This document shows, piece after piece, positions 56,513-64,000 of a stretch of DNA of 64,000 nucleotides; the stretch's first letter is position 1; every line of letters starts with the position of its first letter. The translations under genes were made by a program, and so were the position numbers. Below the pieces are notes generated by a model. The model was not told the origin of the DNA. It searched no databases and was given only the letters and a program-made list of their open reading frames with translations. Origin of the DNA: Anaerolineaceae bacterium (GTDB taxonomy: Bacteria; Chloroflexota; Anaerolineae; Anaerolineales; UBA11657); contig BGOS01000017.1 in assembly GCA_003569365.1 (NCBI GenBank), positions 838-64,837 of the forward strand, given 5' to 3'.

Positions 56513-57643
56513 CTAAAACAATCCGCCGCGCAGCACACCCAGCAGCGCCCCGCCCAGCAGCAGCCAGCTGGCAGAGATGCGCGTGCGCACAAGCAGCAGC
56601 AGCGCTGCCAAACCCAGCAGCGCGCCAGCCGGATCAGCCGCCAAGCCCCACGCCAGCTGCCCGGCCACCGCTGCCAGCAGCCCAAGCGAGGCAGCGTTCA
56701 CCCCGGCCAGCAAACCGGTGGCACCTTGCATGCTGCGCAAGCGCGCCAGCAGCGGCTGGGTAAGCGGCACAAAAATAAACGCCGGCAAAAAAATTCCCAG
56801 CGTCGCCAGCATTGCGCCCGGGAATCCGCCCAGCAGGTAGCCAATGAAGGTGGCGCTTGTGAAGAGCGGGCCGGGGGTCAACTGGCCGGCAGCCACTGCA
56901 TCCAGCAGCTGGCGCTCCGTTAACCAGCCCAGCCGCGCCACCAGATCTGCGCGCAAAAAAGCCAGCAGCACATAGCCACTGCCATAAAGCACTGCGCCAA
57001 TTTTCAGGAAGACCAGAAACAACAGCGGCAGCGCAAAGGGCAGCGCAGTGGCAGCGGCAACTGCCGGCAGCAGCAACACAGCCGCCGGCGGCACGCGCAG
57101 CTGCGGGCTGCCCAGCAGCCACCAGCCGGCAGCCGCGCCCGCCACCAGCAGCCCAACCTCGTTCACGCCAGCCAGCGCCAGCATCATCCCGCAAACTGCA
57201 ATCAGCAGGGTTTGCCAGCGCCGCAGCGCTGCGCGCCCCAAACCCAGCAGCGCGTGCGCCACCACGGCCACCACCACCGGCTGCACACCGGCCAGCAGCG
57301 CCAGCGCAGCCGGCAAGCTGCCAAACCGCACATAGGCGGCAGCCAGCATCAGCACGGAAAACATTGCGGGCGCAATAAAACACAACCCGGCCACCAGCAT
57401 GCCCGCATAGCCGGCGCGCTGCAATCCAATATGGATCACCAGCTCGGTGGAGTTGGGGCCGGGGATCAGGTTGGCCGCGCTCACCAGATCCAGAAACTGA
57501 TCCTCGCTGAGCCATTGGCGCCGCACCACCAGCTCTTGATGCAGCAGCGCGGTGTGTGCTGCGGGCCCGCCAAACGCGGTGCTGCCCAGGCGCAGAAATA
57601 CGCGCGCCAGTTCGGGCAGGGCTGCGCGCTGCCGCGCCGTCAT
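56513..57643 (-). CDS. chrA: Chromate transporter (CHR family)
   Basis: 376 aa with a duplicated CHR domain and LRLGSTAFGGPAAHTALLHQELV. Confidence 0.88.
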   Translation of the reverse strand: MTARQRAALPELARVFLRLGSTAFGGPAAHTALLHQELVVRRQWLSEDQFLDLVSAANLIPGPNSTELVIHIGLQRAGYAGMLVAGLCFIAPAMFSVLMLAAAYVRFGSLPAALALLAGVQPVVVAVVAHALLGLGRAALRRWQTLLIAVCGMMLALAGVNEVGLLVAGAAAGWWLLGSPQLRVPPAAVLLLPAVAAATALPFALPLLFLVFLKIGAVLYGSGYVLLAFLRADLVARLGWLTERQLLDAVAAGQLTPGPLFTSATFIGYLLGGFPGAMLATLGIFLPAFIFVPLTQPLLARLRSMQGATGLLAGVNAASLGLLAAVAGQLAWGLAADPAGALLGLAALLLLVRTRISASWLLLGGALLGVLRGGLF

Positions 57644-58086
57644 GGGCGGCGGGCGCTGTAGTCCGGCAGCCGGCGCTCATAACCAGAATGCAGCAGCGGC
57701 GAAGAAATCAAAAAGTCCGCGGTGGCCCGGTTGCAAGCCATGGGCACATTCCAAACCACGGCCATGCGCAGCAGTGCTTTCACATCCGGGTCATGCGGCT
57801 GCGGCTCAAGCGGGTCCCAAAAGAAAACCAGCATGTCCACAGCCCCGTCGGCAATGCGCGCGCCAATTTGCATGTCCCCGCCCAATGGGCCGCTGCGCAG
57901 GCAGGTGACGGTCAGCTGCAGCTCGCGCTGCAGCATGTGCCCGGTGGTGCCGGTGGCAATCAGGATATTTTTCTGCAGCCCGGCAAGGTTGAAGGCAGCC
58001 CACTCCAGCAAGTCGGCTTTCTTGTTGTCATGGGCCACGAGGGCAATGCATTTTTGCGCGGCAATGACAGGGGTTGGTTCAGGCAT
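57640..58086 (-). CDS. mgsA: Methylglyoxal synthase
   Basis: IALVAHDNKK, ATGTTG, SGPLGGD and DPLEPQPHDPDV. The start is set at the second ATG (58086), 6 nt after GGAGGA. It overlaps the chrA start by 4 nt. Confidence 0.92.
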   Translation of the reverse strand: MPEPTPVIAAQKCIALVAHDNKKADLLEWAAFNLAGLQKNILIATGTTGHMLQRELQLTVTCLRSGPLGGDMQIGARIADGAVDMLVFFWDPLEPQPHDPDVKALLRMAVVWNVPMACNRATADFLISSPLLHSGYERRLPDYSARRP

Positions 58087-58152
58087 TTGCATTCCTCCGG
58101 TTGGCGGGCAGCGTTACTTGCAGCCCGTGGCGAGATTGTCTTATTAATGAAG

Positions 58153-58171
58153 GCCGGCCAAACTGGCAGGC
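58153..58171 (-). promoter_or_regulatory. Candidate bacterial SECIS stem-loop
   Basis: In the mRNA sense: GCC-U-GCC [AGUUU] GGC-C-GGC. That is two 3-bp GC helices around a U/C mismatch, with GU in the apical loop. The loop starts 24 nt after the U of the in-frame UGA. Confidence 0.4.
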
Positions 58172-59607
58172 TAAAGCGGCTCTGCTCAGCAGAACCAGCT
58201 TTCCGTAAGGCCGGGCGGCGGCGGCCGCAAGCGCGGGCCGGGGGCCGGCGCAATCCGGCCGGCAGCGGCGTATGCCAGCTGCTCAACTGCAGCGAAGGTT
58301 GTACGCGCATCTTCTTCAGAGCGCGCAGCAGCTGCGGTGCAAGCGGAAACTTGCGCCCACAGCGCGTCCATGCGCGCGTCCGGATGCGTCCACGGGTGGC
58401 AGTAGTTCTCCGCGTCCAGCGCGCCCAGCCAGGCCGCATTGCCAAATTCACGCAAGAGCAGCGAACCCGGCGGGATCAGCAGGCGAATGCCCAGCTGCAC
58501 TGCATCAATGTGCTCCACCAAATCATTCGCGCGCAGCCACGCCAGCTGCTCCAGATAATCCGCCAGGGTTGTCCACGGCGTGAAGGCCACAAGTGAAATG
58601 CGCAGGGCAATGCCGGCAGCGTCCAATGTGCGCAGCGCAAGCTCCAGCTCCGCGCGCGTATGGCCCTTGTGCAGCGCCTGCAACACCGGCGCGGCCAGTG
58701 ATTCGACCGCCGACACCACAAACAAGCAGCCCAGCGCCGCAAACTCCGCAAACAACGCAGCGTTGGCCGCAATGTGCGAAACCTTCGCGGTGAAATCAAA
58801 AGTGACGTGGGGCAGCTGCTGGTGCAGGGCGCGCGCAATGCGCAGTGCATGCGCCGGCCCGTTCAAAAAGTCCGGGTCGCCAAAAGTAATGTGGCGCGCA
58901 CCGGCCGCCACTTGCGCGTGCACATCCGCCAGCACCGCCTCCACCGGCACTGCCACAAAGCGCCCCGCGTACACGGGCGGAATCGGGCAGTGCGCGCACA
59001 AGTGCTTGCAGCCGCGGGTGGCTTCGGTGTAGCCGGCCAGCTGCAGCTGGCCGTTGCTGCGCAGCTGCGCGTAGCACTGCAGCGGCTGCAAACCAGTGCG
59101 CTGCGGCTGCAACTCTGCGGCGGTGTTGCGGGTTGGCATGGCAGCGTCCGGGCAGTGCGCGGTGCGCACACCGGGCGGCGGCGCTTGGGCATCCCACGTG
59201 CCCTGCAGCACAGCTTGCGCCAGCTGCGGCAGCACGGTTTGCAGCTCGCCCGCCAGCACGCTGTCTGCATCTGCGTGAAACAGCTGCGCCGCATTCAGCG
59301 CAGCGTAATGCCCGTAAAAGCTGATGTGCGCTGCCGGGTTAAGCGCGCGCACAGCGCGTGCCGCCTGCACGCCCACGCGCAGTGCGGTGTGCATCGGTGT
59401 GGAGATGCCCACCCAGCGCGCACTGCGCACCGCTTGCGCATGCTGCGCCAGCGGCTCTTGCGCCAGGTCCACGGCGTGCGCTGCGATGCCGGCAGCCGCC
59501 AGCCACGCCAGCGGGGCGGCAACACCCAACGGCTGGTGTCCAAGCTCATAGCCGGACAGCAGCAGCACCGGCGCTGCGCTGCTGCCAGCGCGCTGCGCTG
59601 CGCTCAC
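58171..59607 (-). CDS. CUAEP-tail radical SAM selenoprotein (UGA at 58186-58188 read as Sec)
   Basis: It has a Rossmann/B12-binding-like N-domain and the radical SAM cluster motif GCKHLCAHCP. The ORF ends ...ESWFC-TGA, and read-through gives TGC TGA GCA GAG CCG CTT TAG = C-U-A-E-P-L-stop. The GTG start overlaps the upstream stop (GTGA). Confidence 0.75.
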
Positions 59608-61226
59608 GGTGCCACCTCCACCCGCAACAGCTCACTCGCTGCGCCGTTCACCAGCGTGCCGGCACAGGCGCTGCGATCTGCAGCGCACCCGAAGATTGCA
59701 AACAATGGCGCATCTGAAAGTAAATCGGTACCGTTGCTGGCAGCAATCAGAGTTTGCCAAATGGCGTACAACACGCGCAGTGCGCCGCCGGCCCGCGCCT
59801 GCTGCGGCGTGATATCGCCAATGCCAACCATCGGCTCAAAGTGCGACCACACATAGCCCTGCTTTGCGCCAGCAGCCACCGAGTCCTGATTGGCCAGCAG
59901 CACCACCAGCTGATCTAGATGAATGAAGGCAACGCTCTCCAGCCACTCGCTTGTACACAGCGCCAGCTCTGCGCAAGTGCGGTACGGAATGCCGGCTTGC
60001 TGCAAATAAGCACTTGCAGTTGCCAGCTCCGGGCGCGTGGCCTGCACCAGCCGCAGCGCGCGGATCTCCTGCAGCGCACCAGCCGGCTCCGCAGCGCTGC
60101 CCGCTTCCGCCCGCGCGCGCTTGAAGCGGTCATCAAAGAAGAACGGCTCCCCGCGCCCGAGGCGCGCTGTGGCTGCCTTCAACACCAGCGGCCATTGCGC
60201 CGGCTGCGGCGTGTGCAGCAGCACTACAGGGTTTGCGCCAAAATCCTGCGCATACAGCGGCGCATAATGTGCCACGTCGCCCCACTCCGGCACAAGCTGC
60301 TGCGCAGCCAGCAAGCCCAAAAGCAATGTGCCCGTTTGCTGCAGCGCACGCTGCGACAAGCGCACGCGCATGATGCCGGTGGGCTTCATCAGCGCAGCGC
60401 TAAACTGCAGCTTGAAGCGCAGCGCCACCTTGCCACCGGAGCCCAGTACTTGCGTTTCGTTCATAAGCTGCTTGGGCAGTTCGATGCCCAGCGTGTCTGC
60501 CCAAAATGCGTCAAAGGCCGCGCCGGCGTTCAGCGCCGCTGCCACATCCAGCCACAAATCTTCCGTGGCGCGCGGATCAATTTGGAACTGCGGTGCTTTG
60601 CCGTCCGGTGAAATTTGCAGCACCAGGCAGCCGCCGTGCAACGCTGCGTAGGCCGGCGCTTCGCCCGCCGGGAACGGCAGTACTTGCAGCGGGCCGGCAT
60701 ACTCCGGGCGCAGTTGAAAGTGGCGCGCGGCCGCATCCCACGCCCACAGAATTTGCCCGGCTGCATCTTGCGGAATGATGGCCCACTGCCGGCCGCTGCG
60801 CAGCACCGCCAGCGAGCCGCCCGCCGGCAGGCGCGCCTGCAGCGCTTGCTGAATTTCTGCAAACCCGGGCATGGCTTGTTGCGCCTGCCACTCCACGCCG
60901 CCGGCCGGCAGTTCCGTTGCCATCGGCAGCATGCTCTCCATTACCCGGTCAAACACACTTCCGTCGCACCCCAGCGGATTGGCAGCCGAGGGCTCAAGCG
61001 TGGGCACCGGCACGGGCGTGGGCAGCACCGGCAGCGTTGGCACAACTGGCAGCGCACCGGCAGCGGCCGTGCTTCCCGGGCGCACAACCAGCCGCGGAAC
61101 AGCTGCCGCACGCGCCCTTAACTCGGCGGTGCCGCAGCCCGCCAGCACTGCAGCCGCAAACATCAACGCTCGCGGCAGCTTGCTGGCGCAAAAAGTGCGC
61201 TCGATTTGGATGGAATTGGGGGGCAT
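59604..61226 (-). CDS. Hypothetical lipoprotein of about 540 aa with no recognisable domain
   Basis: It has a signal peptide with lipobox (KLPRALMFAAAVLAGCGT) and then a Pro/Val-rich linker. The ORF track starts at TTG 61262, but I prefer ATG 61226. TATAAT lies at 61271-61276 (minus strand). Confidence 0.6.
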   Translation of the reverse strand: MPPNSIQIERTFCASKLPRALMFAAAVLAGCGTAELRARAAAVPRLVVRPGSTAAAGALPVVPTLPVLPTPVPVPTLEPSAANPLGCDGSVFDRVMESMLPMATELPAGGVEWQAQQAMPGFAEIQQALQARLPAGGSLAVLRSGRQWAIIPQDAAGQILWAWDAAARHFQLRPEYAGPLQVLPFPAGEAPAYAALHGGCLVLQISPDGKAPQFQIDPRATEDLWLDVAAALNAGAAFDAFWADTLGIELPKQLMNETQVLGSGGKVALRFKLQFSAALMKPTGIMRVRLSQRALQQTGTLLLGLLAAQQLVPEWGDVAHYAPLYAQDFGANPVVLLHTPQPAQWPLVLKAATARLGRGEPFFFDDRFKRARAEAGSAAEPAGALQEIRALRLVQATRPELATASAYLQQAGIPYRTCAELALCTSEWLESVAFIHLDQLVVLLANQDSVAAGAKQGYVWSHFEPMVGIGDITPQQARAGGALRVLYAIWQTLIAASNGTDLLSDAPLFAIFGCAADRSACAGTLVNGAASELLRVEVAP

Positions 61227-61424
61227 GCAGCCAAATTGCAGGGGCTCTCGCCGTTTCGGCAACTGCTGCGATTATAGCCAGCTGGTGCACGCTTGGTGAT
61301 GCATTAATTTTCGCCTGTGCGCCATCCGGGACTTACCCGTGGCGGCTACACCAATCGCACGGGCTTGGACTGCAGCGGATAAACTTGTCTGCGCCCGCAG
61401 GCTGCAGACATGCACCGTGCCAAA

Positions 61425-61479: not shown

Positions 61480-62840
61480 ATGCGCAACACAGCGTGCCTG
61501 CCGCAATCTTGCTTGTTATCTAGCTTCATAATCATTGCGCTGCTAACGGGGTTGACCGCGCTGTATGTGGGCGCGGAGTTTGCTGTTGTAAAGTCACGGC
61601 GCACACGCATCAGCCAGCTGGCGGCTTCCGGCAACCGCTTTGCGCGCCAGCTGCTGCCCATCCTTGAGGACTCGCGCAAGCTCGACCAGTTTGTGGCAGC
61701 CTGCCAAGTGGGCATCTCCCTCACCGGCCTGCTGCTGGGCGCCTACGGCGAGGCCGTGCTGGCGCCGCGCCTGGCGCCGCTGCTCGGCGGCACACAATCG
61801 CATTCACTGGCTGCCACCATTGTGCTGTTGCTGCTCACCATCCTGCTGGTGCTGCTGGGCGAGCTGATTCCCAAGTCACTTGCACTGCAATATCCGCACC
61901 GCACGGCGCTGGCCAGCATGCTGCCAATGCGCGCTTCACAAATAATTTTTGCGCCGCTAATTTGGCTGCTGAACGGCAGCGCGCTTGTGTTGCTGCGCCT
62001 GCTGGGCCGCAGCGCTGCGCCGGTGCGTGGCAGCCTGCACTCCGCCGAAGAAATTGAGCAGCTGGTGGAAGACAGCCACGCCGGCGGCGTGCTGGATGCG
62101 GACGAGCGCCAAATGCTGCGCAACACGCTGCGCCTGCGCGACCGCGTGGCGCGCCAGGTGATGACCCCGCGCACCCGCCTGTACGCAGCACCGGCGGACA
62201 GCAGTGTGCATGCGCTGCTGCAAGGTGCGTGCGAAGCCGGCCACAGCCGCATCCCGCTCTACCGCAACACCATCGACCAAATCATCGGCTTTGTGCACAT
62301 CAAGGATGTGCTGCGCCTGCAGGTGCAGGGGCGCGAAAACCTGGCTGAGATTTGCGCGAGGCGGTGTTTGTGCCAGAGACGCTGCCGCTCGCCGCGGTCT
62401 GGGCCGCACTTGAAACCAAGCACCAATATATGGCCACTGTCTTCGATGAATACGGCGGCACCGCCGGCATCATCACCATGGAAGACTTGCTCGAAGAAAT
62501 TTTCGGCGAACTGCAGGACGAGTTTGACACCAAAGAAAACGCGCTCGTCTCGGCGGACAAAACCGGACGCCTCTTCCTGCGCGGCGAACTTTTGGTGGAG
62601 GATGTGAACGAGTACCTCGCGCTCAGCTTGCCCGAGCAAGAGATGGACACGCTCGGCGGCCTGGTGTTTGAGGCGCTTGGGCGGCGCCCCAGCGTGGGCG
62701 ACGAAGTGACGCTTGGCGTGCCGGGCATCTCGGTGCGCGTGGAAAGCATTGACGAGCTTGCCGTGCTGGAAGTTTCGCTGCTGCTGGGGCCAAAGGTGCA
62801 AACGCAAGTGGGCGAGTGGGCGGTGGCAGCGCGTGAATAG
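61480..62840 (+). CDS. CNNM/TlyC-family protein (DUF21 + CBS pair + CorC_HlyC), with one frame break
   Basis: ORFs 61480-62607 and 62352-62840 join into one protein. It has a DUF21 TM region (AEFAVVKSRRTRI), a CBS pair and a C-terminal transporter-associated domain. Adding one T to the run at 62351-62353 gives ...ENLAEILREAVFVPE... Confidence 0.85.
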
Positions 62841-64000
62841 CCTGCCAGCAGCGGCCCTGCTGCAAGCGCTGCCCGCTGCGCCACAACTGCTGCTGGCCTT
62901 GCTGGTGGTAGCCGGGCTGGTGGCGCTCAATGGGTTGCTGGTTGCTGCCGAGTTTGCCATCATCGGCGTGCGCCCCACCCAAATGGAAGAACTTGCCGGC
63001 CAGGGCAACCCTGTGGCGCGCTCGGTGCTGGCCGTGCTGGAGCACCCGCAAGCACAAGACGAATACATCGCCGCTGCGCAATTAGGCATTACGATTGCGT
63101 CCTTGGGGCTGGGCGTGTACTGCGAGCCACAGCTTGCAAACTTTGCCGCGGCCTACCTGCAACTGCTGCCGGTTGTGTCTGGGGCGGCAGCCCAAAGTGC
63201 CGGGCATGTGCTGAGCCTGGGGCTGCTCACCTATCTGCACATTGTGCTGGGGGAGATGGTGCCCAAAGCGCTGGCACTGGAAAACCCGCGCACCATGGCG
63301 CTGAATGTGGCGCGCCCGATGCAGGCCCTGCGCGTGCTGCTGCTCTGGCCCACGCGCACCCTCAACGCCATCGGCTCGCGCCTGCTGCGCGCATTTGGCG
63401 TGCCGCCGGCTTCGGGGCATGCCAGCCTGCACTCCACCGAAGAGCTGGAGCAGATTGTGGCCGAGAGCAAACAGGGCGGGCTGCTGCGCGAGTCAGAGGA
63501 AGAGATTCTGCTCAACATATTTAACTTCAGCGAGCGTCAGGTAGACCAGGTTATGACCCCGCGCATAAAAATCCAGGGCATCCCTTCCACCATGCCGCTG
63601 CCGGAAATTCTGAACCTGGTGACCACCAGCCGCTTCAGCCGCTTCCCGGTTTACGAAGCGGACATTGACAGCGTGATTGGCGTGCTGCATGTGCGGGACC
63701 TGGCGCATCACCGCCTGCGCGCGCGCGGCGATGCGTTTGATATCCGGCTGCTGATGCGCGCAGCCCCGATCGTGCCCGAGTCTTACTCGGTGGGCGAACT
63801 GATGGCGGCCTTCAAGCGCCAGCGCCTGCACATGGCGTTGGTGGTGGATGAGTTTGGTGGCACCGCCGGGCTTGTCACGCTTGAGGATCTGGTGGAGCAG
63901 GTGGTCGGTGAGGTGCGCGACGAGTTTGACCAGGAGCACGAGCCACTGACGGAGCTGGCGCCGGGTGTGCTGGAACTGAACGGCAACTGCCTGGTGCAGG
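62833..64000 (+). CDS. Second CNNM/TlyC-family protein (partial, runs off the window)
   Basis: The frame is open from GTG 62833 to the window end, so it is absent from the ORF track for lack of a stop. It reads AAEFAIIGVRPTQMEEL..., MVPKALALENP, QVMTPRIKI, VVDEFGGTAGLVTLEDLVEQVVGEVRDEFD. It overlaps the previous gene by 8 nt. Confidence 0.85.
   Translation, partial: MNSLPAAALLQALPAAPQLLLALLVVAGLVALNGLLVAAEFAIIGVRPTQMEELAGQGNPVARSVLAVLEHPQAQDEYIAAAQLGITIASLGLGVYCEPQLANFAAAYLQLLPVVSGAAAQSAGHVLSLGLLTYLHIVLGEMVPKALALENPRTMALNVARPMQALRVLLLWPTRTLNAIGSRLLRAFGVPPASGHASLHSTEELEQIVAESKQGGLLRESEEEILLNIFNFSERQVDQVMTPRIKIQGIPSTMPLPEILNLVTTSRFSRFPVYEADIDSVIGVLHVRDLAHHRLRARGDAFDIRLLMRAAPIVPESYSVGELMAAFKRQRLHMALVVDEFGGTAGLVTLEDLVEQVVGEVRDEFDQEHEPLTELAPGVLELNGNCLVQ

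Follow-up and report, generated by a model that had tools for sequence, protein, structure and literature searches.

Results

A compact four-gene string in an Anaerolineaceae genome

We analysed a 64,000-nt stretch of contig BGOS01000017.1 from an Anaerolineaceae bacterium (hereafter the window), in which the minus strand between 56513 and 61276 carries four closely packed, co-directional genes encoding, in this order, an orphan lipoprotein, a radical S-adenosylmethionine (SAM) selenoprotein with a CUAEP tail, a methylglyoxal synthase (mgsA) and a ChrA-family transporter (chrA) (Table 1; sequence and open reading frame (ORF) list). The original prediction for this region read the lipoprotein and the radical SAM enzyme as a probable functional pair. 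The layout itself was borne out: the four genes are tightly spaced and co-directional, and all the sequence features described for them are present. Overall, however, the best explanation, to which we assign a probability of roughly 0.8, is a lineage-specific, operon-like string that does not represent a conserved functional system, with the partners of the radical SAM enzyme located in a gene cassette elsewhere.

Spacing within the string is short throughout. The gap between the radical SAM gene and mgsA measures 78 nt if mgsA starts at its first ATG (58092) and 84 nt if it starts at the second (58086), which has the better Shine-Dalgarno spacing; the 84 nt originally given thus holds for the second start and fails for the first. 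The 4-nt overlap described between mgsA and chrA is present as ATGA at 57640-57643, shared by the stop of the one and the start of the other. The TATAAT box reported upstream of the lipoprotein gene was likewise found, and it is unchanged, along with about 15 nt on each side, in five orthologous sequences; around it, GCTGG(C/A)TATAATCGCAGCAGTTGCCG is invariant in all five, while other intergenic DNA diverges. A strict scan for two-hexamer sigma-70 promoters did not call the box because its -35 element is weak, and neither terminator nor promoter scans gave counts above those of shuffled sequence. Judging from sequence and its conservation, the box is probably the promoter of the string, and the four genes are probably co-transcribed.

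Table 1. Features of the four-gene string and its upstream flank (window coordinates)
Feature	Coordinates	Strand	Basis or detail
Divergent CNNM/CorC-type transporter gene pair	61480..64000	+	Synteny map; Pfam CNNM/CBS/CorC_HlyC on orthologue
TATAAT -10 box upstream of lipoprotein gene	61271..61276	-	Direct sequence reading
Orphan lipoprotein gene, 540 aa	59604..61226	-	ORF and translation; ATG at 61226, lipobox and signal peptide 61134-61226, last codon ending 59607, stop TGA 59604-59606
Lipoprotein/radical SAM junction	59604..59619	-	Sequence; GGAGG Shine-Dalgarno 59615-59619; GTGA 59604-59607 shared by lipoprotein stop (TGA, 59604-59606) and radical SAM start (GTG)
CUAEP-tail radical SAM selenoprotein gene	58171..59607	-	NF040546; selenocysteine TGA 58186-58188, stop TAG 58171-58173
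SECIS-like (selenocysteine insertion sequence-like) hairpin, GCCUGCCA-GUU-UGGCCGGC	58153..58171	-	Fold
mgsA, methylglyoxal synthase	57640..58092	-	NF003559, 208.8 bits; start 58092 or 58086
chrA-family chromate ion transporter gene	56513..57643	-	TIGR00937, 295.9 bits; two Pfam Chromate_transp repeats

The lipoprotein gene is confined to one genus and occupies a variable slot

The distribution of the lipoprotein does not follow that of the radical SAM family. Across 61 related genomes, the lipoprotein was present in three, all members of the window's genus (g1), whereas the radical SAM family was present in 23, with one UGA every time. Of the 22 other relatives bearing the radical SAM gene, 20 gave no lipoprotein match, and the two sister genera (g2 and g3) carry the radical SAM gene in every genome (4/4 and 6/6) and the lipoprotein in none of the ten. 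We also compared the best 80 of at least 595 radical SAM relatives from a scan of one genome per species, a set that spans Chloroflexota, Acidobacteriota, Nitrospirota, Gemmatimonadota, Planctomycetota, Methylomirabilota and Poribacteria, among others. None of these 80 loci gave a tblastn match to the lipoprotein at E-values up to 1, and a lipobox was detected in none of the 38 upstream and none of the 40 downstream same-strand neighbours of the radical SAM gene. The co-occurrence across genomes expected of a functional pair is therefore not observed, an outcome that the original prediction itself had named as grounds for its refutation.

Searches of larger collections pointed the same way. 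A word-seeded search of 5.8 billion clusters returned three close matches to the lipoprotein, and an exhaustive HMMER search of 1.84 billion representatives recovered, besides its own cluster, no more than a fragment and two weak partial matches. By these comparisons, the lipoprotein is a genus-restricted orphan. Other lipoproteins do occur beside the radical SAM gene in two other genomes, namely an 825-aa GH113-like lipoprotein upstream (L039:377-2854) and a glucose/sorbosone-dehydrogenase-like lipoprotein downstream (L027:8482-9663). The window lipoprotein showed no similarity to the radical SAM neighbours elsewhere against which it was tested, these two included, and the placement of these unrelated lipoproteins is probably coincidental.

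Synteny places the gene at a position that changes from genus to genus. The order in the window's family (f1) is dnaE, two divergent CorC/CNNM genes, the radical SAM gene, and then a convergent winged-helix regulator, prmA, dnaJ, dnaK and grpE, such that the CNNM/CorC pair is a conserved upstream neighbour of the radical SAM gene. The slot that separates the radical SAM gene from the CorC genes consists of about 278 nt with no gene in g3. In g2 it contains an alpha/beta hydrolase gene, which two genomes have intact and one in decayed form and which a further genome lacks. In g1 it contains the lipoprotein gene, and mgsA and chrA downstream are likewise restricted to the genus. The position upstream of the radical SAM gene is therefore a variable slot. 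The g2 hydrolase loci are L032:4460-5302, L035:5582-6429 and L034:8554-8817; one of these genomes has an intact gene, a second a split one, and a third an 87-aa remnant. On a g1 metagenome contig (L130:9604-9890), other genes and an ISL3 transposase take the place of hutI after the string, so that the downstream flank is variable within the genus as well.

Start signals differ correspondingly between the genera. In g2 and g3, the radical SAM gene starts with an ATG 6 nt after a TAGAAT box (L040:6934-6976, L041, L032), which suggests a leaderless transcript. In g1, the same gene has a GTG start and a GGAGG Shine-Dalgarno sequence, and the similar GCTATAAT is located upstream of the lipoprotein gene instead. 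The placement of this short motif would be compatible with the lipoprotein gene having been inserted behind the old promoter.

A stop/start overlap conserved within the genus

The 4-nt overlap between the lipoprotein stop and the radical SAM start had been the basis for proposing a functional pair. The overlap can be read directly from the sequence and is kept across g1: four other sequences of the genus (including G002, L130 and L131) share both the overlap and the GGAGG Shine-Dalgarno, which lies 7 nt upstream of the radical SAM GTG, within the last codons of the lipoprotein gene. Overlaps of this kind are common in the window's genome (G000; 95.5% complete, 30 contigs), where, by a rough count, a 4-nt overlap is possible in about 125 of 1082 close same-strand ORF pairs, or ~12%. 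Since these overlaps are common, and since mgsA and chrA, which are unrelated in function, share the same kind of overlap, the overlap alone is no sign of partnership. The overlap and the strong internal Shine-Dalgarno indicate co-transcription and close translation, and do not by themselves indicate a shared function.

It is very unlikely that the lipoprotein is a partner or substrate of the radical SAM enzyme, for example as a pre-lipoprotein modified before export. Such a scheme has a parallel in anaerobic sulfatase-maturing enzymes, which modify protein in the cytoplasm before export, and the overlap would match the synthesis of the two proteins. The GTGA overlap kept in five of five instances, the invariant cysteines of the lipoprotein and the lack of a precursor peptide gene would all fit it. 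Against it stand the distribution of the lipoprotein, not found in 20 of 22 other radical SAM-bearing relatives or in any of the 80 loci, and a slot that is empty or otherwise filled in sister genera. The frequency of 4-nt overlaps in the genome and the radical SAM gene's own strong Shine-Dalgarno also count against it, the enzyme has other, widely conserved partners (see below), and the lipoprotein is predicted to be extracytoplasmic while the enzyme is cytoplasmic. The proposed pairing, whether argued from the overlap or from a partner or substrate role, is thus not supported, given the one-genus distribution, the variable slot and the predicted location outside the cytoplasm.

The radical SAM protein is a full-length member of a selenoprotein family

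Protein families were assigned with the NCBIfam and Pfam profile libraries, using curated cut-offs of 500 bits for NF040546 (CUAEP/CCAEP-tail radical SAM proteins) and 450 bits for NF040542 (ArsL). The window protein scored 609.3 bits against NF040546, with residues 14-478 aligned to profile positions 1-462 of 468, and as a full-length member it is no different from the rest of the family. Its gene context does differ, the gene being detached from the YggX, ATP-grasp and formyltransferase genes and following an orphan lipoprotein gene. The CX3CX2C motif (G-C-K-H-L-C-A-H-C; C200/C204/C207) is invariant in a 10-sequence alignment, and Pfam gave only a Radical_SAM match (33.9 bits) and a weak B12-binding match.

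Readthrough of the TGA extends the protein by a tail reading SWFC-U-AEPL before the TAG, and the same tail is found in the 21 orthologous radical SAM loci of the order (Anaerolineales, Chloroflexota). Among the 80 cross-phylum loci, 56 have C-TGA-(A/S/T)EP and 19 have CC(A/S)EP; such interchange of selenocysteine (Sec) and cysteine typically marks genuine selenoproteins. In the window, a hairpin (58153-58171) begins 14 nt past the UGA. All 21 loci of the order have a hairpin at a distance of 14-17 nt, with a G/U-rich loop and compensatory changes in the stem (GATCAG...GATC, GAGTCAG...GACTC, GCCA...TGGC), and of 53 Sec-form loci in other phyla, 38 carry a comparable one at this distance. Rfam yielded no match in the region, nor did the 3' hairpin correspond to any bacterial SECIS family. 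We regard this hairpin as a putative SECIS-like element that would help decode UGA as Sec. The genome encodes selB (310 bits) and selD (364 bits, with a UGA of its own). Taken together, the profile score, the UGA tail and the hairpin conserved in 21 loci uphold the earlier assignment of the protein to a Sec-tail radical SAM family.

The earlier view that a role in ribosomally synthesised and post-translationally modified peptide (RiPP) biosynthesis is not supported also stands. The ORF list contains no precursor-sized ORF beside the radical SAM gene, Pfam detected no SPASM or RRE domain in the protein, and the 78-84 nt spacer 3' of the gene holds the SECIS-like hairpin, not a precursor ORF.

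NF040546 was listed as uncharacterised by Haft and Gwadz (bioRxiv 10.1101/2022.07.06.499078), who noted that the rare CU motif recurs in heavy-metal-handling proteins. The family is not listed in a 2026 review of prokaryotic selenoproteomes. An orphan confined to one lineage upstream of the gene of a known, uncharacterised selenoprotein is an ordinary arrangement.

Three of the enzyme's widely conserved companions form a cassette on another contig

Clustering of neighbouring genes across the 80 loci revealed companions of the radical SAM gene that recur far beyond the window's lineage. The most frequent is an ATP-grasp protein with an L-amino-acid-ligase C-terminal domain (32/80 loci), followed by an Nfu/NifU-type protein (26/80) and a YggX-type Fe(2+)-trafficking protein (20/80), the gene of the latter nearly always lying directly upstream, where its stop and the radical SAM start overlap (median 4 nt). 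A DUF169 protein (17/80) and a formyltransferase-like protein (15/80) are further neighbours, and at least one of these five is present in 32 of the 39 loci with at least 3 kb of sequence on both sides. The widely conserved companions of the CUAEP-tail radical SAM protein are therefore ATP-grasp ligase, YggX-like, formyltransferase-like, Nfu and DUF169 proteins.

Other families of the order carry these genes as a compact cassette, in the order formyltransferase-like (divergent), YggX, radical SAM and ATP-grasp (convergent), and such a cassette is the usual setting of the radical SAM gene across Chloroflexota and further phyla. The window's genome retains the formyltransferase-like, YggX-like and ATP-grasp genes together on contig C3 (147464-149971; L129:1464-3971), with the radical SAM gene on contig C17; on C3, only 48 nt separate the YggX and ATP-grasp stops at the point where the radical SAM gene sits in other families. 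The cassette without a radical SAM gene is also found in G008, G003 and G025, the instances extending over two sister genera and one other family. Compared with the radical SAM/ATP-grasp/YggX module of the 80 loci, the window's genome thus encodes the same three families and the formyltransferase-like protein, and differs in that its radical SAM gene lies away from the cassette, as is the case throughout family f1 and in G025.

Linkage aside, the radical SAM and ATP-grasp genes tend to be found in the same genomes. Both are present in 21 of the 61 genomes, one only in five and neither in 35, a pattern among kin and not a statistic, with a patchy distribution over seven families. Of the five genomes with one only, two fall below 90% completeness, another has 90% completeness and 6% contamination, and one, at 97% completeness, has its match at a contig end. 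Family f1 offers a natural example of a radical SAM gene that lies apart from the cassette and still co-occurs with it, and co-occurrence without linkage supports a functional tie that is independent of adjacency.

Comparison with ArsL and a proposed history of the string

The nearest characterised relative of the window protein is ArsL (NF040542), an enzyme of arsinothricin biosynthesis. The window protein scored 255 bits against this profile, with residues 14-421 on positions 1-408, which is under the 450-bit cut-off. Both proteins have a Cys-rich C-terminal tail after the radical SAM core; the tail of the window protein reads WFCUAEPL instead of RCCLKC, and no arsM or arsQ neighbours are found at the window locus. 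ArsL cleaves SAM reductively to a 3-amino-3-carboxypropyl radical, its RCCLKC tail binds the As(III) substrate, and removal of the tail abolishes product formation with SAM cleavage retained (bioRxiv 10.1101/2024.02.01.577332). By analogy, the C-U tail of the window protein could present a soft element or a reactive intermediate to the radical SAM site, and the ATP-grasp ligase could then act on the resulting amino-acid-like product. We infer that the radical SAM enzyme may work with the unlinked cassette on a small molecule, and the earlier suggestion of a small-molecule substrate is in this sense plausible. As the nearest studied relative, ArsL makes a small, amino-acid-like product a better target for further work than a peptide or protein substrate.

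The lineage-specific reading can be laid out as a sequence of events. The radical SAM gene would ancestrally have belonged to the formyltransferase-like/YggX/ATP-grasp cassette and, in family f1, would have moved to the site beside the two CorC/CNNM genes, the cassette remaining intact without it on contig C3. In g1, the orphan lipoprotein gene would then have landed in the variable slot preceding the relocated gene. Transcription of all four genes probably now starts from the lipoprotein promoter, and the radical SAM protein would be translated from its own strong Shine-Dalgarno inside the 3' end of the lipoprotein gene.

Several observations weigh against this reading. The overlap and the Shine-Dalgarno are kept in all five known instances, and this leaves room for a young functional link; all five are from one genus, so the point carries little weight. 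Six cysteines of the mature lipoprotein are invariant, CX5C and CX6C pairs among them, and would suit metal or metalloid binding. The 61 genomes of the co-occurrence panel are kin, so counts over them overstate independence. Finally, with regard to the decoding machinery of the window's genome, selA is present but split over two adjacent frames (C11:46096-47417; profile positions 2-253 and 252-449), which points to a frameshift or a sequencing error, and tRNA-Sec was not found in the 95.5% of the genome represented by the assembly with ARAGORN (default and relaxed settings) or RF01852. Sec decoding in this genome therefore rests on comparative evidence. A relaxed ARAGORN match to tRNA-Sec adjoining selB was set aside, as it was not confirmed by Rfam.

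In a further reading, the string would be a stress operon specific to g1 that deals with soft metal(loid)s or oxyanions, the Cys-rich lipoprotein capturing the ion on the outside, the Cys-Sec-tailed enzyme processing it within the cell and ChrA moving the oxyanion. The presence of a ChrA-family transporter within the string fits this idea, as do the binding of As(III) by the ArsL tail and the CU motif, thought to bind heavy metals in other selenoproteins (bioRxiv 10.1101/2022.07.06.499078), and the same four genes are adjacent on a second metagenome contig. We nevertheless consider it quite improbable, since the string is found in one genus only, nothing ties mgsA to a role of this kind, the radical SAM gene of other genera lacks chrA and mgsA as neighbours, and the string includes no regulator or further resistance gene. 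At comparably long odds, the radical SAM selenoenzyme, once detached, could have been recruited in g1 to a new operon in which the Cys-rich lipoprotein, with its CX5C and CX6C pairs, captures a metal(loid) substrate or product of the enzyme at the cell surface and ChrA moves an oxyanion; an uncharacterised organo-element pathway would in that case have gained a recent extension specific to this lineage.

The lipoprotein is a real gene without recognisable relatives outside its genus

The lipoprotein alignment comprises five sequences, all from g1 and at least 79% identical in amino acids. The predicted N-terminus has a basic n-region, a hydrophobic core and the lipobox L-A-G-C31, and a tether rich in Pro, Val and Thr comes next. 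The lipobox is invariant in the five sequences, as are all of seven cysteines (C31, C87, C200, C418, C424, C514 and C521), and the genome encodes lgt (150 bits) and lspA (116 bits). Compared with its orthologue in the second g1 genome, the protein is 80% identical, with a ratio of nonsynonymous to synonymous substitution rates (dN/dS) of 0.25 and 74, 58 and 154 differences at codon positions 1, 2 and 3; the corresponding dN/dS values are 0.20 for mgsA and 0.14 for the radical SAM gene. GC content at the three codon positions (0.72/0.52/0.73) is like that of neighbouring genes, and the frame is intact in all five sequences and was also called by independent gene callers in metagenome contigs. 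Because of this dN/dS, the gene-like codon GC, the conserved frame, lipobox and cysteines, and the presence of lgt and lspA, the lipoprotein is a real gene under selection, and its product is predicted to be exported and lipid-anchored.

That the 540-aa frame is instead a chance long open frame in GC-rich DNA is extremely improbable: the lack of homologues outside g1, the poor structural model described below and the many long spurious frames on both strands of the region would fit, but a chance frame would account neither for a dN/dS close to that of mgsA and the radical SAM gene and differences concentrated at third codon positions, nor for gene-like GC by codon position, a frame intact in five sequences with a conserved lipobox, and independent calls in metagenome contigs.

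The earlier statement that the protein has no assignable motif agrees with our searches. It matched no Pfam or NCBIfam family, and a profile search of the Protein Data Bank (PDB) with its alignment returned nothing at E-values up to 1. A GGDEF_2 assignment was rejected, the Pfam score of 17.8 bits falling below the 24.5-bit cut-off, and matches of residues 211-265 to repeats of a 3,760-aa and an 898-aa protein (E = 2e-6 and 2e-5) were judged compositional or too short; the 898-aa protein looks cadherin-like by eye. An AlphaFold2 model built from the five-sequence alignment has very low confidence, with a mean predicted local distance difference test score (pLDDT) of 33 and a predicted template modelling score (pTM) of 0.23. 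The protein therefore resembles bacterial lipoproteins processed by Lgt and LspA in its signal peptide, LAGC lipobox, Pro-rich tether and the presence of both genes in the genome, and differs from them in a mature domain that matches neither a known family nor a solved structure.

The upstream flank

In the CNNM/CorC pair upstream of the string, the first gene (61480-62840) is frameshifted near 62352 according to tblastn. A metagenome contig supplies an intact 429-aa orthologue, which aligns with frame 1 up to residue 267 and with frame 3 from residue 268 onwards, and the frameshift is either an assembly error or the mark of a pseudogene.

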